Source: an uncultured Flavobacteriales bacterium (lineage in GTDB: Bacteria; Bacteroidota; Bacteroidia; Palsa-965). From it: a stretch of 64,000 nt of DNA. The notes beneath the pieces are model-generated. The model searched no databases. It saw only the letters and a list, made by a program, of their open reading frames with translations, and was not told the DNA's origin. Position numbers and translations under genes: made by a program. The stretch covers positions 1,289-65,288 of the forward strand of contig CALJIF010000032.1 in assembly GCA_937974275.1 (NCBI GenBank), given 5' to 3'. Numbering within the stretch: position 1 is the stretch's first letter; every line of letters begins with the position of its first letter. Below, piece by piece: positions 19,528 to 37,642 of the stretch.

Positions 19528-19558
19528 TTTGTGAAAATGAAATAACTTTTTACTTTTG
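19528..19558 (+). promoter_or_regulatory. Bacteroidota-type promoter for tRNA-Gln
   Basis: TTTG (19528-19531), a 19-nt spacer, then TACTTTTG (19551-19558) matching the TAnnTTTG -7 consensus. The tRNA starts 26 nt downstream. Confidence 0.45.
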
Positions 19559-19583: not shown

Positions 19584-19654
19584 TGCCCGATCGTCTAATG
19601 GCAGGACTTCAGATTTTGGTTCTGACTGTGTTGGTTCGAATCCAGCTCGGGCAA
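19584..19654 (+). tRNA. tRNA-Gln (anticodon TTG)
   Basis: Folded by hand: acceptor TGCCCGA/TCGGGCA, D stem GTCT/GGAC, anticodon stem TCAGA/TCTGA with loop TT-TTG-GT, T arm GTTGG-TTCGAAT-CCAGC, discriminator A; 71 nt. Confidence 0.9.
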
Positions 19655-29639: not shown

Positions 29640-30845
29640 TTAGCACTCGCAAATAAAGAGTTTCGAATCTTTGTTCCCTTTGTGTTTGTACAACGACTCG
29701 AATCCTACATCCGCTATAATAAAGTTGACTTTTGGAGAACGATATTCTTCCACCACGTGTTGAATGTCGAGATCACGCAATTCTTCTTTATCACCAAAAC
29801 GAATATACACACGTGTTGTAAAGTTCTTGTCCAGCAATTCGTTTCCTGCAATACGACCACCGTTGAGTGCGCGCAGCTTATTCAACTTCTTGTACGCGTA
29901 TTTGTAATTGTAGGTTAGCGCCGAAACATCCGACAACACTGCGCTTCCCGTCGGATGACTTCCCGCGCCTTTACCGACAAAACTTTGTTTACACGAAAAC
30001 GCTCCTTCTACTTCAATAGCGTTGTATTCGTATAGAATATTAAACAACTCATCTTCCTTACTGATAAAACGCGGCATCACGTACACACGAAATTTGTCTC
30101 CTGATTTCGCTGCACTGCCGATTAATTTGATGCGCAGCCCTTTTTCACGCGCATAGCGAATATCGTCGAACGAAATATTCTGAATGCCCAACGTAAGAAC
30201 ATCCTCCGGCTTCAACACAACTCCAAATGCATGCACAGACAACAAAATAGTTTTGTACATCGTATCGAATCCGGCAACATCCAACCACGGATCTGCTTCT
30301 GCAAAGCCGCTTGCTTGCGCATCTTTCAACACATCCCCATAATCTTTACTCTCCAATTCCATTCGGGTGAGAATGTAATTTGTTGTGCCGTTTAAAATGC
30401 CGCGTAAACTTCCCAGCAACTCATTGTCGTAATATTCCTCCAGTGTACGAATGATGGGAATACTACCTCCTGCAGCACCTTCATATATCAGTGCTTTGCC
30501 GGTTTCTTCCTGAACCTTGAACAGCTCCGCAAAATAGGTGGCCAACATTTTCTTACTGGCGCTTACTACATTCATTCCGTTGTTCATTGCAGTTTTCGCA
30601 ATGGCGTATGCCTCATCCGTATCGGTAATCATTTCAACTACAACATCCAGATCCTGACGGTTCAGAATATCATCTTTGTCATAAGTAATCAACGATGCAT
30701 CAACGCTTCGTTGCTTCTTCGGATCCTTTACTCCAATTCGGGCGATGTTCGCCTGCAACACTTCGGAATGATTTAATACATCGTACAAGCCCTGACCTAC
30801 GCAACCAAAGCCAAATAATGCCACTGAAATTTTCTCGTTGTTCAT
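29640..30845 (-). CDS. hom: homoserine dehydrogenase
   Basis: ATG 30845 gives MNNEKISVALFGFGCVGQG (NAD-binding fold). Typical central motifs are present, such as GILNGTTNYIL. It is the last gene of the sulfur operon. Confidence 0.88.
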   Translation of the reverse strand: MNNEKISVALFGFGCVGQGLYDVLNHSEVLQANIARIGVKDPKKQRSVDASLITYDKDDILNRQDLDVVVEMITDTDEAYAIAKTAMNNGMNVVSASKKMLATYFAELFKVQEETGKALIYEGAAGGSIPIIRTLEEYYDNELLGSLRGILNGTTNYILTRMELESKDYGDVLKDAQASGFAEADPWLDVAGFDTMYKTILLSVHAFGVVLKPEDVLTLGIQNISFDDIRYAREKGLRIKLIGSAAKSGDKFRVYVMPRFISKEDELFNILYEYNAIEVEGAFSCKQSFVGKGAGSHPTGSAVLSDVSALTYNYKYAYKKLNKLRALNGGRIAGNELLDKNFTTRVYIRFGDKEELRDLDIQHVVEEYRSPKVNFIIADVGFESLYKHKGNKDSKLFICEC

Positions 30846-30853
30846 AATTAAAT

Positions 30854-31510
30854 TTATAAGTGCAATCCACATTCTGTTTTCGATCTATTTACCCAACGTC
30901 CTTCACGCCCTCTACCCTTTACCGTACAGTGATAACATCCTACCGAATGGAACCCTTGCTTAATAAGCGGATGTTCCGGAAGTCCGAACTCTTTCATATA
31001 CGCTGCAGCTTGTGATTCCGTTAAATCAACAATCGGATAAAACTTTGTGATCTCTTCGCGGGGATCAAAAATATTCAACTGTTTACGAAACTTGTTCTGA
31101 GCGCCCATCAATCCGGAAATCCAAATTTTATAATTGGACTTGATTTTATCGAGTGGTTCAACTTTGTTAATGGAACAACACAAATCCGGATCCTTGCTCC
31201 ATGTTTGATCTTCACGCGTAAATGTATTTTTCCATTCTTCCGGTTGTAGTGTAATTACATTCAGTTCAAGCAACTTCGTCAAATCATCTTTATACTGAAG
31301 TGTTTCAGAAAAATGATACGTTGTATCCAAAAAATAAACAGGATGTTGAGGAGCAACGCGGTGCAACAAGTGCAGCAGAATCGCAGACGTTGTTCCAAAC
31401 GATGACGTAAACAAAATATCGCGCGCAGAAAACTCAGCGAACAGCTGCTTCATCCTTTGTTCCGGATTCAGAGACAAATAGGCGCGACTTTTCTCCACTG
31501 CAGCGATCAT
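30854..31510 (-). CDS. cysH: adenylyl-sulfate/phosphoadenylyl-sulfate reductase (thioredoxin-dependent); the CC...CxxC motif suggests the Fe-S APS-reductase type
   Basis: The C-terminal catalytic motif ECGLH is present. A Cys pair in DLCCSINK plus CYHC match the 4Fe-4S ligands of APS reductases. Confidence 0.88.
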   Translation of the reverse strand: MIAAVEKSRAYLSLNPEQRMKQLFAEFSARDILFTSSFGTTSAILLHLLHRVAPQHPVYFLDTTYHFSETLQYKDDLTKLLELNVITLQPEEWKNTFTREDQTWSKDPDLCCSINKVEPLDKIKSNYKIWISGLMGAQNKFRKQLNIFDPREEITKFYPIVDLTESQAAAYMKEFGLPEHPLIKQGFHSVGCYHCTVKGRGREGRWVNRSKTECGLHL

Positions 31511-32994
31511 AACCCCAACATGGTTTTTAAACTGATAATAACTACCAGAAATCCTACAAAGATGAGCCCATTACGCACCGAAATTTTAGTTGATAACCAG
31601 ATAGAAAGTGGTGCTGCTGCCATACCTCCAATCATTAATCCGACAATAATTGTCCAGTGTTCGATGCCGATCAAAAAGAAAAATGTGACAGTACTAATCA
31701 CAGCCACAAAAAATTTCGCCGCATGCGCAGAACCGATCGTGTAACGCAAATCGCGACCGCCGGCTAGTAATGTTGATGTTACAATTGGCCCCCAACCGCC
31801 GCCACCAACGGAATCCAGAAATCCACCTACAGCACCCAAAACTCCGATTCGCTTAATTTTTCGTTTCGGCTTCTTCACCATGATAGCCTTTCGGATAATC
31901 AAGATTCCCAAAAACAACGTATAACACGCTACAAAAGGCTTTAGCACCTTGAGATTAGCATTCAGTAATGATGCCGTTAATGCACCGAGCACAGCACCGA
32001 TCGCGCCGGGAATCAGTAATGAACGAAACAGTTTGCTGTTGATGTTTCGATAGCGCCAATACACCAGTGATGAAGTTCCGGTAGTTAAGATTTCGGAAGC
32101 ATGCATACTGGCACTTGCGACTGCAGGACTAACACCAAACGACATTAAAAATGTGGTTACACTCACTCCGTAGGCCATTCCTAATGCGCCATCGATCATC
32201 TGTGCAACAAACCCACCCAATATCCACCATAAGATCGATTGATCAATTTGCGCCGTTGCAATGGTGATTCCGTCCCAAATTTCGACTAATGGTATAAATG
32301 AAAAAAGTAAATGTCCGATCACCATCAAGCTCAGCACTGACAAAACATACAGTACAATTTTGTATTTCCGTTTTATCGCATGCTTGGGTGCAGCTTCTTC
32401 CACCAAAACTTTAGTGGCTTCGTTCAACACGCGTACTTTTTCTTTGAAGTCACCACGCAGATGATCGCGGAGTTGATTGAGCTGCTGAGCTGAAGTAATC
32501 GTTTCGTCGGGAATGTTTTCAGACAACACCTCTTTCAATCGCTTCGCCAAAGTAGGTGAAGTACCATTAGTACTGATTCCTATTTTTAACGGGCCCTTGC
32601 TCACCACTGCGCCTAAATAAAAATCACAATAATCGGGACGATCGGCGGCATTCAATAACAAACCGCGGGCATGAACATCATCACGAATTAACGCCGTTGT
32701 AGCGATATCATTCACACAGGAAATAACGATATGTTTTCCCTCCAAATCTTCAGGTGTGTAAGGTCTTTCCTCCAGAAAAACATTTCTATGCAAACGTGCT
32801 ATGCTGCCCACTTCTTCAATCACTTCCAACGCCACAATGGTAATTGTTACCGCCGGACTCTGTTGTAAGATATTATTCAACTTTTCTAATGCCACTGCAC
32901 CACCGCCAATAATCAACACGTGCAGGTGTTCCAATTTTAAAAAAACCGGAAACAACGTATTGTTCATTTTATCATTTGTGGTAGGTGTGCTCAT
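31507..32994 (-). CDS. fusion protein: siroheme synthase N-terminal module (precorrin-2 dehydrogenase/ferrochelatase, SirC/CysG-N) + TauE/SafE (TSUP) anion permease
   Basis: Residues ~15-200 read FPVFLKLEHLHVLIIGGGAVALEKL...GISTNGTSPTLAKRLK. Residues ~230-495 contain 7-8 TM helices with the DUF81 signature GVLGAVGGFLDSVGGGGWGPI. Confidence 0.85.
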   Translation of the reverse strand: MSTPTTNDKMNNTLFPVFLKLEHLHVLIIGGGAVALEKLNNILQQSPAVTITIVALEVIEEVGSIARLHRNVFLEERPYTPEDLEGKHIVISCVNDIATTALIRDDVHARGLLLNAADRPDYCDFYLGAVVSKGPLKIGISTNGTSPTLAKRLKEVLSENIPDETITSAQQLNQLRDHLRGDFKEKVRVLNEATKVLVEEAAPKHAIKRKYKIVLYVLSVLSLMVIGHLLFSFIPLVEIWDGITIATAQIDQSILWWILGGFVAQMIDGALGMAYGVSVTTFLMSFGVSPAVASASMHASEILTTGTSSLVYWRYRNINSKLFRSLLIPGAIGAVLGALTASLLNANLKVLKPFVACYTLFLGILIIRKAIMVKKPKRKIKRIGVLGAVGGFLDSVGGGGWGPIVTSTLLAGGRDLRYTIGSAHAAKFFVAVISTVTFFFLIGIEHWTIIVGLMIGGMAAAPLSIWLSTKISVRNGLIFVGFLVVIISLKTMLGL

Positions 32995-33692
32995 AGCGCG
33001 AGTTGGTGCTGGATAACAAATCGTATAATTCCGTGAGACTCAAATTCCGTTTCGGAACGACGCAACAACAGGTGCATTCCGGTAACAGTAACTCCCCACT
33101 GCTCATTGAACTTATATCCAAAACCACCAAATATTCTGTTTTGATCAAGGACAGCAAAGTTAATACGAGTAGCTGCAATAATGAGCTCGTTGCCCAGTAT
33201 TAAATAGGTGTTGCGTTGTTCGGTAATATAGCGATGCCATTCCGTTCGAAAGCGCGCGCGAACAGTAGCGAATTTGTAGTTCGTTTCCGGTGTTGCTATG
33301 AATCGTTGTTCAACACGCAAACGCTGTATGAACGTGTTTTTTGTTGATACCTGCTTAGCACCCCATTCTTGCCACAAGCGCCATTCACGGCGAAATGCTC
33401 CGTTATTGGGATTCGGGTACAAGTGAAAACGTGCGTAACCAATCATTACGGTATGATCATTTTTGAACTTGCGCTGAATTCCCTGGCGCCAAAGTATATT
33501 GAACCAGTCTCCATCGGTTAGTTCCAATCGGGCTTGCGCATCATTGAACAACTCCCACTTTTCGTTCAATACCAGGCGCTGCTGAAAACCGCCCCAAACA
33601 AGATAACGCGGAGTGATAGTGCGCTGCGCCAAAACCATCGCCGGCAACATCAGCATCCACGTTATCAATAGGATTATTGTAGTTCTTTTCAC
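32991..33692 (-). CDS. DUF2490-like predicted outer-membrane protein
   Basis: Signal peptide MKRTTIILLITWMLMLPAMVLAQ and aromatic/Arg-rich alternating sequence. It overlaps the next gene by 4 nt. The family assignment is from memory and tentative. Confidence 0.65.
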   Translation of the reverse strand: MKRTTIILLITWMLMLPAMVLAQRTITPRYLVWGGFQQRLVLNEKWELFNDAQARLELTDGDWFNILWRQGIQRKFKNDHTVMIGYARFHLYPNPNNGAFRREWRLWQEWGAKQVSTKNTFIQRLRVEQRFIATPETNYKFATVRARFRTEWHRYITEQRNTYLILGNELIIAATRINFAVLDQNRIFGGFGYKFNEQWGVTVTGMHLLLRRSETEFESHGIIRFVIQHQLAL

Positions 33693-33698
33693 GGTGAA

Positions 33699-34472
33699 TT
33701 AATTCAACAAATGATTTTCCAAAGCCAGCGTGTAAAGTGCCTGTGGATGTTTTCGTACCACTTCACCTACAACAATAACAGCAGGTGTTTTAATTCCTTC
33801 TTCTTGTACAACGCGCACAATAGTATCTACAGAACCGATGGCAACATTCTCAGTGGGTAACGATCCATTCTGAATTACGGCTACCGGTAAAGCACCCTTG
33901 CCGTATTGCTCATACACTTTTGTGATTTCCCGCAGTGAACTTAGGCCCATTAAAATGATCACCGTTGCTTCCGATTGCGCAGCCAAATGAATGTCATTAG
34001 GAATTTCTCCCGCAGAATTTCGTCCCGTCAGCACCCAAAAGCTTTCACTAATTCCACGATGCGTCACAGGAATACCTTGTAAAGCAGGAACACCTAGCGA
34101 ACTCGAAATGCCGGGCACAACTGCCGTTTCAATATTAAAGCGATCAGCAAATTCTAATTCTTCTGCTCCGCGTCCAAACACAAAAGGATCGCCACCTTTC
34201 AAACGAACCACGTGCCCGTGTGAAAAGGCATAATCAACGATGAGTGAGTTGATCTGATCTTGCGTTAGATGATGCGCACCTTTGCGTTTGCCAACAAATA
34301 TTTTTATGGCTTGATACGGTGCATACTTTAATAATTCGGGATTCACCAAAGCATCGTATAGAATTACATCTGCTTCACCCAACGCGTTAATTGCTTTAAT
34401 GGTTATTAATTCAGGATCTCCGGGACCAGCGCCGATAATAGTAAGTTTCGGTTGTTTATAATACGTATTCAT
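33699..34472 (-). CDS. cobA: uroporphyrinogen-III C-methyltransferase
   Basis: IIGAGPGDPELITIKA, VVRLKGGDPFVFGRG and VVPGISS are classic SUMT motifs. Confidence 0.92.
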   Translation of the reverse strand: MNTYYKQPKLTIIGAGPGDPELITIKAINALGEADVILYDALVNPELLKYAPYQAIKIFVGKRKGAHHLTQDQINSLIVDYAFSHGHVVRLKGGDPFVFGRGAEELEFADRFNIETAVVPGISSSLGVPALQGIPVTHRGISESFWVLTGRNSAGEIPNDIHLAAQSEATVIILMGLSSLREITKVYEQYGKGALPVAVIQNGSLPTENVAIGSVDTIVRVVQEEGIKTPAVIVVGEVVRKHPQALYTLALENHLLN

Positions 34473-34505: not shown

Positions 34506-34574
34506 TTAAAAGGATGATTTGCAACAACAACATCGCATTCGACTATTCCGGAATAACTGAAGTCTTGATTTCAT
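34506..34574 (-). CDS. candidate mini-ORF MKSRLQLFRNSRMRCCCCKSSF between sir and cobA
   Basis: The ATG lies 4 nt after the sir stop. It has four consecutive Cys codons (TGT TGT TGT TGC, 34532-34521) and a stop 33 nt before the cobA ATG. It is below the ORF-track length cut-off. Confidence 0.35.
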   Translation of the reverse strand: MKSRLQLFRNSRMRCCCCKSSF

Positions 34575-34578
34575 AGTC

Positions 34579-36669
34579 TTAGTTGGTATGAATATTTTTC
34601 CTGTTCGCTAATCGCTTCTGAATAGTAGTATGTACAAACTCACGCGACTCCTTAAGGTACTTTTGCGTAAAGGATTGTGTGGGCTGTTGCTCTTTAATTT
34701 GCAACACTGCTTGTGCGAAGGCGTTGTCGGGGAATCCGTAAGCCACACCAAAGTGCGTTTGAAATTCGCTAATGACGGAAAACTGACTATTCACTTGTAT
34801 TCCATCATCTAACAAAACAGCTTTTGCTGCATGAATAATGGCATTGTAAGCATGGTAAGCAGCATCAGCAAAACGCGATTTATTGAACTGTTCTTCCGAA
34901 GCTCGAATTGCATCTTCGGCTTCATGTAACAATACAGTTACTAAGTCGATCTTCACTCCGGCGCATTCACCCACTCCCACAGCCAAAGCAAATTTTTTAT
35001 CGGAATTCCAATCGATGAGCAGATCATCCGAGATATCGTCGGTTTCCCCAAATGCTTTCAGCAATTGATAGAAATACATTTTACCCTGACGAAGAAAATA
35101 TTCGCGGTACGATTCGTCGGTTGCATTATGTTCGAAATCGTTAATTAAAACACGCAACACTGCAGGCGCGCGCTTGCTGGGGAACTTGATAATTTTTTCT
35201 GCTGCAACACCTTTTCCACCTCCAAGCACCAATTGTAACGCAGGAGCTACAGCACGTCCAATCTTCAGGGAACTTCCGTGAAAACCGATATCTGCCAATG
35301 CGTGCTGACCGCAACTATTCATGCACCCGCTGATTTTTATCGTTAAATCGCGTCTTCCGATGAAGTGCGGGAACTCATGTGCAACAACTTCTTCAAGCAC
35401 CGCAGCAACTCCGGTACTGTTGGAAATACCGAGATTGCACGTATCTGTACCCGGGCAAGATGTAATATCTCCTAATGCACTTCCTCCGGGCAAATGCAAA
35501 CCAAGAACTTGCAACGCCTGATACAAAGCGGGAACAGCCGATTCAGGAACAAAACGCAACAAAATACTTTGCTGAGGAGTTATGCGGCTATCTGATGACC
35601 GTGCATAGTGATCGATAACATCAGCAAGTGCTGCAGCGGTTGAGGAAGCTAAATCACCACGAGGAATGCGCACATGCACAGCCACATATCCCGGTTGTTT
35701 CTGAGCGATTACGCTGCTGCGTTTCCAAACATCGAATGCTTCAGAATTACTTTTCTTAAATGTGGTGAAGATACTTTTCGGTTCGTCTATGGCATTTTCA
35801 AAATCAGGAATGTTCACGTGTTGTGCTGCAAGTCCTTGTTTTTCTTCTTGCACCAAACGCAGCAATTCTTCGAGTCCGATTTTATGGAGTAAGTATTTCA
35901 ATCGTGCTTTATTTCTGTTGTTGCGCTCACCATGTCGGTCGAACACACGGAGCAAGGCTTCCGTGAACGGCACAATTTCACTTTCGGGAAGAAATTCAGA
36001 TGCGGTTTGCGCCGGAAATGGCTGTGCGCCGAGCCCACCGCCGATGACAACTTTGAATCCACGTTGCATGTTGCCGGTGACAATTTCGACACGCGGAATA
36101 AATCCGATATCGTGCATGAATGTAAATGCCGTGTCGGCTTCGGACGAGGAAAACGCAATTTTAATTTTCCGCCCCATGTCTTGACCAACAGGATTGCGCA
36201 GAAAATATCTGAAAAGAAAATCAGCGTACGGCGTTACATCAAATGGTTCACCGGAATCAATGCCTGCTTCCGGAGAAGCTGTGATATTACGAACTGTGTT
36301 ACCGCATGCTTCGCGTAATGTTAAATCGTCTTGCTCCAATTCCGCCCACAACGCAGGTGTATCATCGAGACTCACGAAATGAAATTGCACATCCTGACGT
36401 GTAGTTAAGTGTAAATTACCCGTCGCGTATTTATCGGATAATTTTGCCAATTGTCGCAATTGATTGGTGTTAAAACGCCCATACGGAATTTTTATGCGCA
36501 CCATTTGTACGCCTTGTTGGCGTTGTCCGTACACACCGCGTGCAAGACGCAGACTTCTGAATTTTTCGGGGTCAATTGCTCCGGAATGAAACTGCAGGAT
36601 TTTATGCTGCAGGTCGAGGATATCTTGTTCTACTATCGGATTTTCGAGTTCGGTTCTAAAGCTTTGCAT
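34579..36669 (-). CDS. sir: assimilatory sulfite reductase hemoprotein (ferredoxin-type NiR/SiR fold) with an extra C-terminal helical domain
   Basis: Siroheme/4Fe-4S ligands SCPGTDTC (Cx5C) and GCMNSC (Cx3C), with duplicated NiR/SiR ferredoxin-like halves. At 696 aa it is ~130-150 aa longer than the core. Confidence 0.9.
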   Translation of the reverse strand: MQSFRTELENPIVEQDILDLQHKILQFHSGAIDPEKFRSLRLARGVYGQRQQGVQMVRIKIPYGRFNTNQLRQLAKLSDKYATGNLHLTTRQDVQFHFVSLDDTPALWAELEQDDLTLREACGNTVRNITASPEAGIDSGEPFDVTPYADFLFRYFLRNPVGQDMGRKIKIAFSSSEADTAFTFMHDIGFIPRVEIVTGNMQRGFKVVIGGGLGAQPFPAQTASEFLPESEIVPFTEALLRVFDRHGERNNRNKARLKYLLHKIGLEELLRLVQEEKQGLAAQHVNIPDFENAIDEPKSIFTTFKKSNSEAFDVWKRSSVIAQKQPGYVAVHVRIPRGDLASSTAAALADVIDHYARSSDSRITPQQSILLRFVPESAVPALYQALQVLGLHLPGGSALGDITSCPGTDTCNLGISNSTGVAAVLEEVVAHEFPHFIGRRDLTIKISGCMNSCGQHALADIGFHGSSLKIGRAVAPALQLVLGGGKGVAAEKIIKFPSKRAPAVLRVLINDFEHNATDESYREYFLRQGKMYFYQLLKAFGETDDISDDLLIDWNSDKKFALAVGVGECAGVKIDLVTVLLHEAEDAIRASEEQFNKSRFADAAYHAYNAIIHAAKAVLLDDGIQVNSQFSVISEFQTHFGVAYGFPDNAFAQAVLQIKEQQPTQSFTQKYLKESREFVHTTIQKRLANRKNIHTN

Positions 36670-36725
36670 AAGTTTTATTGTAAGTTGTTTCGGATATATT
36701 TTTTTGAAAATCCGTGAGAACCGAC

Positions 36726-36760
36726 AATAAAAAAGCCCTCACGGAAATCCGGAGGGCTTC
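36726..36760 (-). terminator. intrinsic terminator / attenuator 2, ~57 nt upstream of the sir ATG
   Basis: Minus strand: AAGCCCTCCGG-ATTT-CCG(t)GAGGGCTT, 11 bp with one bulge, followed by TTTTTTATT. Confidence 0.7.
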
Positions 36761-36777
36761 GCTCAACACACCAACAA

Positions 36778-36888
36778 TCAACTGCACCATGTAAGCATAT
36801 ACCTTCCGGGCTTGCTGTTTGCACAGCAGCACATACACATGCACATACACATGTACGAGGAAAGGAAGGTTAATGCGGTGCGTTTCAT
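36778..36888 (-). CDS. candidate leader peptide 2: MKRTALTFLSSYMCMCMCMCCCANSKPGRYMLTWCS
   Basis: Translated by hand from the minus strand. Ten consecutive codons (36852-36823) are only ATG or TGT/TGC. The stop lies 17 nt before terminator 2, and an A/U-rich stretch precedes ATG 36888. Confidence 0.55.
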   Translation of the reverse strand: MKRTALTFLSSYMCMCMCMCCCANSKPGRYMLTWCS

Positions 36889-36907
36889 GTTGAAGTTCGG
36901 TTAAATT

Positions 36908-36944
36908 AATAAAAAAAGGCTTTCCAAAATCGGGAAAGCCTTTT
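36908..36944 (-). terminator. intrinsic terminator / attenuator 1
   Basis: Minus strand: AAAAGGCTTTCC-cgatttt-GGAAAGCCTTTT (12 bp) followed by TTTATTAATTT. The T tract is much weaker on the plus strand. Confidence 0.7.
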
Positions 36945-36961
36945 ATATAAATGCTATTCCC
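36932..36961 (-). promoter_or_regulatory. candidate antiterminator helix of attenuator 1
   Basis: GGGAA(T)AGC (36961-36953) pairs with GCTTTCCC (36939-36932), which is the 5' arm of terminator 1. That gives 8 bp, one bulge and a 13-nt loop. It starts 5 nt after the mini-ORF stop. Confidence 0.35.
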
Positions 36962-36965
36962 ACTG

Positions 36966-37016
36966 TCATGGATTCATGCAGCAGTTCATCATCATATTTA
37001 AGTTATTGTTCATCAT
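36966..37016 (-). CDS. candidate leader peptide 1: MMNNNLNMMMNCCMNP
   Basis: Translated by hand from the minus strand. Of 16 codons, 6 are Met, 2 Cys and 6 Asn. The stop lies 21 nt before terminator 1. Confidence 0.45.
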   Translation of the reverse strand: MMNNNLNMMMNCCMNP

Positions 37017-37057
37017 TGTAATGTGGCGCAAAGATATAGCGGAAATATTTTATGATG

Positions 37058-37065
37058 CAAATTTA
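37058..37065 (-). promoter_or_regulatory. candidate -7 promoter box for the sulfur-operon leader
   Basis: TAAATTTG on the minus strand matches TAnnTTTG and lies ~42 nt upstream of mini-ORF 1. No clean -33 TTTG sits at the expected spacing. Confidence 0.3.
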
Positions 37066-37150
37066 TTTTTGTTATCGCGTTAAAACCGCTTCGTTGCTGT
37101 GTTGTACGTCACTTTTAAAATAACCGTTCGATAAATTTATGCCGACACAT

Positions 37151-37642
37151 TTAGTTGGACGTACTTTTCGAGCGCGTCGCATTCAAATACTCCCGGGCAA
37201 CTTCCAGCAGCTCGCTCGACGTACAATTCGTATCCGCGGTATTTACCTTTCTTTCGTAATAGGAACGTGAGCCGTCATTGGCCCACTCTTGTACCACCAA
37301 ATACTTTTTAATGCCCCGCAAACCGGATCCCGGTGCCTCGGCATGCGAAAGATCTTCTTCTTCTAACGTGATATCCCGAATCAGTGTCCAGGGAATAGTT
37401 CTTTTATATCTCCGCAAGTAAACCCCTTCTTCACTAAAAACAATTTCATGTTTATTCCGTAATCGATTTACGACAATAACGATCAACACCAGTGCACTCG
37501 AAATCAGCCAAAACCACCAAAATTCGGGATTGCGCACTCGTTCAAAAATCAGCGCATAAGCACTGCCCACACACATGAATAACATGGGCGCACCAATAAC
37601 TACATCCATCGTAGAACTTCGTTTGATGTAGCGCGGCTTCAT
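37151..37642 (-). CDS. hypothetical membrane protein (two N-terminal TM helices + soluble C-terminal domain)
   Basis: ORF of 163 aa with two hydrophobic helices. I recognised no family. Confidence 0.65.
   Translation of the reverse strand: MKPRYIKRSSTMDVVIGAPMLFMCVGSAYALIFERVRNPEFWWFWLISSALVLIVIVVNRLRNKHEIVFSEEGVYLRRYKRTIPWTLIRDITLEEEDLSHAEAPGSGLRGIKKYLVVQEWANDGSRSYYERKVNTADTNCTSSELLEVAREYLNATRSKSTSN

Follow-up and report, generated by a model that had tools for sequence, protein, structure and literature searches.

The present analysis concerns a 64,000-nucleotide (nt) stretch of DNA from an uncultured Flavobacteriales bacterium (contig CALJIF010000032.1), called the window here. On its minus strand, directly upstream of an assimilatory sulfite reductase gene, there are two very small open reading frames (ORFs) rich in cysteine (Cys) and methionine (Met) codons, each followed by an intrinsic terminator. 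We propose, with a probability of about 0.8, that positions 37061-36903 (minus) form unit A, the promoter-proximal member of a tandem pair of ribosome-mediated transcription attenuators which would control an operon for sulfate reduction, siroheme and homoserine. The support for an attenuator is computational and consists of sequence features, conservation, promoter placement, complementarity and spacing.

Predicted promoter, leader ORF and terminator of unit A

The features of the leader region are the following.

37058-37061, minus: -33 element TTTG, the 3' end of TAAATTTG, recognised by the strict promoter pattern and in relatives
37029-37036, minus: -7 box TATCTTTG, a Bacteroidota box of the form TAnnTTTG, with 12 nt between it and ATG 37016 and 15 nt between it and ATG 37013
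36966-37016, minus: leader mini-ORF A including its stop codon, peptide MMNNNLNMMMNCCMNP, or MNNNLNMMMNCCMNP from ATG 37013
36975-36995, minus: putative regulatory codons ATG ATG ATG (36995-36987), AAC, TGC TGC (36983-36978) and ATG (36977-36975), read from the sequence
36953-36961, minus: antiterminator 5' strand GGGAAUAGC (= GGGAATAGC), beginning 7 nt past the first base of the stop codon
36914-36944, minus: hairpin of intrinsic terminator A, found by terminator scan and fold, -15.4 kcal/mol
36903-36913, minus: T-rich tail of terminator A (TTTATTAATTT), from sequence and terminator scan
36778-36888, minus: leader mini-ORF B (MKRTALTFLSSYMCMCMCMCCCANSKPGRYMLTWCS, with MCMCMCMCCC), 25 nt past terminator A and lacking its own promoter box
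36732-36760, minus: intrinsic terminator B, from terminator prediction

The original prediction, which a model had made from the letters of the window, placed a mini-ORF with the composition of MMNNNLNMMMNCCMNP at 37016-36966, and it is present at exactly these coordinates. Its codons are ATG ATG AAC AAT AAC TTA AAT ATG ATG ATG AAC TGC TGC ATG AAT CCA TGA. The peptide contains 6 Met, 2 Cys and 6 Asn, and after the first start there are 5 Met and 2 Cys among 15 residues. On its two strands the window has 957 mini-ORFs that start with ATG and have 6-70 codons. In a ranking of these by their density of Cys and Met, ORF A came 2nd and the adjacent MCMCMCMCCC ORF (leader B) came 1st, and both lie directly 5' of the sulfite reductase gene. 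Two details of the earlier description held only in part. The ATG at 37016 exists, but it is not conserved, as it reads CTC in L081, a metagenome contig 97% identical in sulfite reductase, and ORF A therefore probably starts at the second ATG (37013). Similarly, the ORF of the window is indeed Met-rich, but this is a local peculiarity, homologous peptides being mixtures of Cys and Met such as MMCCMMC or CCMMC. Neither leader mini-ORF is present in the public gene call. This call has a 64-aa (amino acid) GTG-started ORF at 36656-36850, minus (= L161 1320-1514), lying over leader B, terminator B and the sulfite reductase start, which is probably spurious.

Terminator A stands 21 nt past the stop codon of ORF A. 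A 12-bp (base pair) terminator serving the minus strand had been claimed at 36944-36914, and both the terminator scan and the fold confirm it. The arms AAAAGGCTTTCC and GGAAAGCCTTTT form 12 pairs, 5 of them G-C, around the 7-nt loop cgatttt and are followed by TTTATTAATT, and the hairpin dominates the minimum-energy fold of 37050-36900 (z = -3.05). The strand GGGAATAGC/GGGAAUAGC (36961-36953) pairs with GCTTTCCC/GCUUUCCC (36939-36932), which is part of the 5' arm of the terminator. This pairing had also been predicted, and the antiterminator helix was found to be the minimum-energy fold (-9.6 kcal/mol) once the 3' arm of the terminator was omitted. The distance from the last Met codon to the antiterminator strand is 16 nt and that from the stop codon to the strand is 7 nt, both typical for the family described below. 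Another hairpin, CUGCUGCAUG/CAUGACAG, lies within ORF A; it neither overlaps nor competes with the antiterminator strand, and no equivalent is evident in relatives.

The promoter is where our analysis departs from the original prediction, in which TAAATTTG at 37065-37058 was the -7 box and transcription began at ~37050. The TTTG of TAAATTTG is located 21 nt ahead of TATCTTTG, giving TTTG-N21-TAnnTTTG, and the arrangement TTTG-N19/21-TAnnTTTG is also found 5' of the first-unit ORF in L006, L014, L027, L083, L084, L086 and L093. On account of this spacing conserved in relatives, TATCTTTG (37036-37029) is the more likely -7 box and takes the place of TAAATTTG, which would supply the -33 element instead. 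The predicted start thereby moves about 28 nt downstream, to about 37022-37025, and a 5' untranslated region (UTR) of only about 6-12 nt would be expected. A weak sigma-70 match (9/12) at 37075-37047 was set aside, because the TAnnTTTG boxes conserved in relatives represent a different promoter type. Under the strict pattern TTTG-N19-21-TAnnTTTG there are two sites in the window, one at unit A and one directly before a tRNA gene. The latter, at 19528-19558 (plus) and 26 nt 5' of the tRNA gene at 19584-19654 (plus), can be regarded as an informal positive control.

It had further been claimed that the mini-ORF is the first element of the operon transcript, and this claim stands. In tandem loci, 9/10 first units and 0/8 second units have a TAnnTTTG box at 7-21 nt 5' of the ATG (Fisher p = 4e-4). 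Among single units the box was observed in 69/85, and the background in random 44-nt windows is 1.9%. In several tandem loci merely 14-28 nt separate terminator A from ORF B, so that there is no space for a separate promoter of unit B. The position of unit A at the head of the transcript is thus supported by the placement of the boxes. A distance of 7-21 nt from the end of the -7 box to the ATG suggests very short 5' UTRs across the family.

Conservation among relatives of the sulfite reductase locus

Relatives were collected by sulfite reductase protein scans, which gave 80 species-representative genomes (apparently Bacteroidota throughout, with identities no higher than 57%) and 80 metagenome contigs, L081 being the one at 97% identity. 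By a simple search, 100 of the 157 relatives' loci that have enough upstream sequence contain one or more Cys/Met-rich mini-ORFs with a terminator 5' of the gene. Several of the matches look spurious; typical peptides contain MMCCC, MCMCC or CCCCCC runs. The two-unit arrangement exists in at least 14 independent Bacteroidota loci. The two units lie directly 5' of sulfite reductase in window/L081, L006, L014, L027, L045/L124, L083, L084, L085 and L086, and farther upstream, with another gene between, in L010, L015, L090 and L094; L093 is counted among the 14 with the first unit alone detected. The layout consists of a promoter, a Cys/Met ORF, its stop codon, an antiterminator strand 6-8 nt on, a terminator of the GGCTTTCC type, a second ORF with its terminator and then the sulfite reductase operon.

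Lack of conservation in relatives had been named as a possible refutation of the mini-ORF. At least 13 other loci have, at the position of ORF A, a Cys/Met-rich ORF homologous to it, and a terminator lies 3' of the leader ORF in every homologous unit. The first-unit peptides are 15-28 residues long (for example MNNNFTYTLTTSNSPMMCCMMCA, MNKTSNKSYAICSTCCMMCI and MKTTAFHTANVPAMMCCCMPVA), with an N/T/K-rich start and a Cys/Met run that ends 0-3 residues from the stop, L006 being an exception. In the family, 16% of the non-start residues are Cys and 13% are Met. Cys is encoded by TGT 24 times and by TGC 23 times, and the remaining peptide varies. Since both codons are equally used, it is the amino acid and not a nucleotide motif that is conserved. 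The earlier description implied a split in which the upstream unit would respond to Met and the downstream unit to Cys. This is unsupported, as both units contain both codon types across the family, and each unit would therefore read Cys plus Met rather than one amino acid.

The statistical weight for the antiterminator comes from the relatives, because in the window the duplex alone gives p=0.037. When the stop-to-terminator segments were aligned with MAFFT, the terminators were aligned and the antiterminator strand fell out of register, since the length of the spacer varies. For this reason the duplex was predicted locus by locus and compared with shuffles. In this analysis, 29 nt around the stop codon were paired by RNAduplex with the 5' arm of the terminator in 10 loci, with 2000 shuffles per locus. 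Complementarity to the arm exceeded that of the shuffles in 10/10 loci (p = 0.0005-0.05 each; Fisher combined 3e-15), with duplexes of 8-12 bp and -9.8 to -18.1 kcal/mol across the family. In all but L006, where it overlaps the last codons, the antiterminator strand begins 6-8 nt past the first base of the stop codon (9/10 loci), and the last Cys/Met codon lies 11-18 nt 5' of the strand. The post-stop strands of first units include GGAAAGCC, GGAAGAG and GGAGAGC, and the 5' arm GGCTTTCC is common to nearly all first-unit terminators in relatives. A row-by-row comparison revealed that the antiterminator strand mimics the 3' arm of the terminator over 7-11 positions in 14/14 loci. The mimicry holds even where the arm differs, as with GCCUUCC in L006 and GCUCUUCC in L083. 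The relatives thus support the earlier proposal of a stop-adjacent antiterminator strand that a terminating ribosome would cover.

The comparison with L081 allows the rate of change in the leader to be set against that of the operon. Window and L081 differ at 75 of the 2091 nt of the sulfite reductase gene, and 55 of these differences are at third codon positions (7.9%). From the -33 element to beyond terminator B there are 2 differences in 359 nt, as compared to about 28 expected at the third-position rate (p about 8e-11), which indicates that the whole leader is under purifying selection. Both differences fall in the first ATG and turn it into CTC, and from ATG 37013 through terminator A there are none. 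L081 lacks the 163-aa ORF that precedes unit A in the window (37151-37642, minus; no Pfam match). In L081 about 25 nt lie between the B12-binding gene and the promoter, which is the same as in the window and leads into both units. The similarity between window and L081 resumes a few bases 5' of the -33 element (about 37069), so that an indel of ~600 nt abuts the leader promoter.

Proposed mechanism and its alternatives

In the proposed mechanism, transcription would start a few nt past TATCTTTG and the 15-codon ORF A would be translated almost from the 5' end. When both Cys-tRNA and Met-tRNA are well charged, a ribosome that arrives at UGA would cover GGGAAUAGC, the hairpin 36944-36914 would form and transcription would end at about 36910. 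When Cys or Met is scarce, a ribosome would stall on AUG AUG AUG, on UGC UGC or on AUG, 16-34 nt 5' of GGGAAUAGC. The strand would then be free to pair with GCUUUCCC, and polymerase would read through. A ribosome reaches about 12-15 nt 3' of its A site, and it is this reach, set against the spacing of the strand, that would allow masking from the stop codon and not from the Cys/Met codons. Polymerase would next meet unit B, with its MCMCMCMCCC leader and terminator, and the same test would be made again. As both units carry both codon types, a shortage of either amino acid could open both gates, and two gates in series would multiply termination and lower the basal read-through. Translation of ORF A, masking by the ribosome and the response to Cys and Met are what we infer from the arrangement. 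A leader that is not translated may default to read-through, unlike that of trp, since no conserved 1:2 pairing was found.

Several points weigh against this proposal and should be noted here. The antiterminator of the window is the weakest in the family, with 8 bp and a bulge and -9.8 kcal/mol as compared to -15.4 kcal/mol for the terminator, and its duplex taken alone only modestly beats shuffles. The minimum-energy fold of the full-length leader is terminator A, and no conserved anti-antiterminator (1:2) pairing was found. ORF A of the window has only two Cys codons. Covariation was assessed in the duplex of each locus instead of by counting alignment columns, and there is little variation in the paired core. 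The 5' UTR would measure ~6-12 nt and lack a Shine-Dalgarno sequence, and that translation can begin there is expected from Bacteroidota in general. In addition, the hairpin of terminator A would also halt read-through from upstream genes.

The last point leads to the simplest alternative, that the hairpin 36944-36914 only ends the genes that lie upstream in the same direction (the 163-aa ORF, or the B12-binding gene and histidine kinase) and that the mini-ORF and the complementary strand are there by chance. The upstream genes are indeed co-directional, the terminator scan found no other minus-strand terminator between 37151 and 36944, and the antiterminator of the window alone is marginally above shuffles. 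However, the combination of ORF, antiterminator and terminator recurs in at least 14 loci with differing neighbours. As L006 and L083 have a divergent gene as their upstream neighbour, terminator A cannot, for the family, be a mere upstream-gene terminator. Moreover, in 9/10 loci the ORF is separated from the upstream gene by a promoter box, and ORF A is 2nd of 957 in Cys+Met density. The specific version in which the hairpin belongs to the 163-aa gene, already named in the original prediction, fails with L081, which keeps the promoter and both units without that gene. We regard chance placement behind an upstream terminator as very improbable. A decaying unit A, which still terminates and switches poorly, would act mainly as a constitutive damper and leave the sensing to unit B. 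It would be in line with the weak, bulged antiterminator, the 2 Cys codons, the shortest peptide of the family and the dominance of the terminator in the fold of the full leader. Yet the lack of any difference between ATG 37013 and terminator A, despite a third-position divergence of 7.9%, speaks for ongoing purifying selection, and the distances from stop codon and last Met codon to the strand have remained family-typical, so that decay appears unlikely.

The remaining alternatives assign another role to the ORF or to the RNA. Short Cys-rich peptides can function, and the C-terminal Cys/Met cluster is conserved, so that the mini-ORF might encode a small peptide that binds metal or is the precursor of a modified peptide, and not a sensor. 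But beyond the Cys/Met run the peptides share little except an N/T/K-rich, A-rich start, their length ranges over 15-28 residues, every ORF comes together with a terminator and an antiterminator next to its stop codon, and there are no adjacent genes for maturation or export; a functional peptide is thus scarcely to be expected. An RNA switch that binds a protein or a ligand, such as S-adenosylmethionine or a sulfur metabolite, could use the same terminator and antiterminator pair with the ORF being incidental, and the two alternative structures do exist. Against it stand the absence of any Rfam match at or near gathering score and of a conserved structure of aptamer size, the segment from promoter to antiterminator being essentially just the ORF. 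In addition, the reading frame and the Cys/Met codons are conserved while the choice between TGT and TGC is free. Such a switch seems a most unlikely explanation, and we favour attenuation by the translating ribosome.

The operon, known systems and biological meaning

The genes behind the leader, all on the same strand, are listed below.

34579-36669, minus: first structural gene, 696-aa assimilatory sulfite reductase with NIR_SIR domains (Pfam matches)
29640-34472, minus: rest of the co-directional gene string (Pfam matches)

Behind the sulfite reductase gene follow, in order, TP_methylase (uroporphyrinogen methylase type), DUF2490, a fusion of siroheme-synthase N-domain and TauE, PAPS reductase and homoserine dehydrogenase. 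From the shared orientation and the short or overlapping gene junctions, the string is taken to be one operon. Its products lead to sulfide, siroheme and homoserine, all three needed as precursors of Cys and Met. On the other side of the leader, the 5' neighbours on the same strand are the 163-aa ORF, the B12-binding-domain protein and a large histidine kinase. Within the string, the siroheme-synthase N-terminal domains are fused to a membrane domain of the TauE/SafE sulfite-exporter type in a protein of 495 aa, followed by PAPS reductase, the gene of which overlaps at its 3' end with that of homoserine dehydrogenase. One gene string (29640-32994, minus) thus unites the reduction of sulfur with the Met branch. 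At its C-terminus the sulfite reductase is extended, with a weak HEPN-domain match at residues 579-634 (E = 3.5e-7), and its relatives are similarly long (about 680-696 aa).

A third Cys-rich mini-ORF, MKSRLQLFRNSRMRCCCCKSSF (34506-34574, minus), begins 5 nt past the sulfite reductase stop and ends 33 nt before TP_methylase. Counterparts, such as MKKYYPYIKFDSCCCCMIMI and MNRKYYIHIVFEYCCCC, occur in 14/159 relatives' loci and start -8 to +4 nt from the sulfite reductase stop in 12/14. The Cys codons of the third mini-ORF are able to pair with AACAACAA downstream, and folding of the region showed nothing unusual (z = -0.54). The third mini-ORF may sense Cys from within the operon. In L045/L124 and L085 the stretch between the attenuators and sulfite reductase contains a tRNA-Cys(GCA) gene, and L098 has one in front of sulfite reductase. 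These genes lie on the same strand, 116-181 nt 5' of the sulfite reductase start, in L045 (3870-3941, = L124 510-581), L085 (2820-2892) and L098 (2885-2956), and they make up 4 of only 7 tRNA genes across all 161 loci. The gene is located directly behind the second leader terminator in L045 and L085, and no leader was seen in L098. In the window there is no tRNA-Cys gene between the attenuators and sulfite reductase.

A comparison with known systems shows how much of the proposal is classical. The enterobacterial amino-acid operons are controlled by leader-peptide attenuators, namely the trpL, hisL, leuL, thrL, pheL and ilv leaders, for which PMC9723704 cites the review by Gollnick & Babitzke 2002. 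The unit described here resembles them in having a leader ORF with a run of end-product codons, a terminator before the genes and an antiterminator that shares the 5' arm of the terminator. As in region 2 of the trp leader, the antiterminator strand comes just after the stop codon and would be masked by a ribosome at the stop and be free when the ribosome is stalled upstream. Unlike the classical cases, Cys and Met codons occur jointly, no conserved 1:2 pairing was found and two units are placed in series. The -33/-7 promoter of Bacteroidota, the predicted 5' UTR of a few nt and the absence of a Shine-Dalgarno sequence also set it apart, and no similarity in sequence or in Rfam was found. Tandem riboswitches and T-boxes likewise place two termination units in series, which is generally taken to give a sharper response or a lower background. 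They sense a ligand or uncharged tRNA by RNA binding, whereas the units here would act through the translating ribosome.

Leader-peptide attenuators have already been described in the same phylum. The Bacteroid-trp motif (RF01692; PMC2864571) is one for Trp, and hisG, ilvE and aromatic amino-acid leaders have been mapped in Flavobacterium psychrophilum (PMC9723704 and supplement). They share with unit A a short codon-enriched ORF in a structured 5' region followed by a terminator; however, they sense Trp, His, Ile or aromatics, they are single units and none is for Cys, Met or sulfite reductase. In mycobacteria, leaderless polycysteine small ORFs control cysteine and sulfur-assimilation operons (bioRxiv 10.1101/834739; first predicted in PMC1262725). 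There the stalled ribosome frees a sequestered downstream ribosome-binding site, a form of control at the level of translation that uses no terminator (bioRxiv 10.1101/834739). What the two would share is stalling of the ribosome on the Cys codons of a tiny ORF right at the start of the mRNA, as well as one logic at several loci, but here each ORF has an intrinsic terminator with a T-run, the run includes Met codons and the units are in tandem. In Rhodobacterales, the uORFC-8-2 motif 5' of cysS, with tandem Cys codons and a terminator stem with a U-run, has been proposed to be a ribosome-mediated attenuator (PMC8632094). It differs in belonging to a Cys-tRNA synthetase gene, in having two Cys codons and no Met run, in being a single unit and in coming from another phylum with unrelated sequence.

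The scan of the whole window with Rfam 15 at gathering score gave no family except one tRNA. In a permissive Rfam scan of 36400-37400 nothing covered the element; the best match over unit A was McaS with 22 bits (gathering score 42), Phe_leader reached 20 bits (gathering score 55) on the opposite strand, and the Bacteroid-trp model had no match in the leader region. In full-text searches of the literature and in Rfam 15, with the survey of Lopatovskaya et al. 2010 outside this scope, we found no Cys/Met leader in Bacteroidota or 5' of sulfite reductase, no Met-codon attenuator and no tandem leader-peptide attenuator. The mechanism would thus be classical leader-peptide attenuation, and what would be new is the dual specificity for Cys and Met, the tandem layout and the reach across the phylum.

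A wider reading can be offered tentatively, and we consider it rather doubtful at present. It holds that Cys+Met ribosome sensors are phylum-wide and mainly control sulfate reduction in Bacteroidota, and that one lineage has built from them a three-stage cascade on a single mRNA. The cascade, no less tentative, would comprise unit A with its antiterminator after the stop codon, unit B with an antiterminator inside the ORF and the third Cys-rich mini-ORF before the siroheme genes. If this were true, it would be the first case of leader-peptide attenuation that depends on Met codons and the first family of tandem leader-peptide attenuators.

Single units are carried by the cultured genera Pedobacter, Chitinophaga, Mucilaginibacter and Pontibacter. 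With this element, a joint Cys+Met signal would be added to those read by leader-peptide attenuation. It would also be a natural case of two serial terminators sensed by ribosomes, useful for understanding how serial gates shape a dose-response. Gene callers overlook such leader ORFs, and annotation would benefit from a covariance or profile model of the family. To our knowledge no regulators of sulfur assimilation have been described in Bacteroidota, and we believe that sulfur regulation in this phylum has been little studied. For these bacteria, the element described here would offer an account of the control of sulfur assimilation that needs no regulatory protein.

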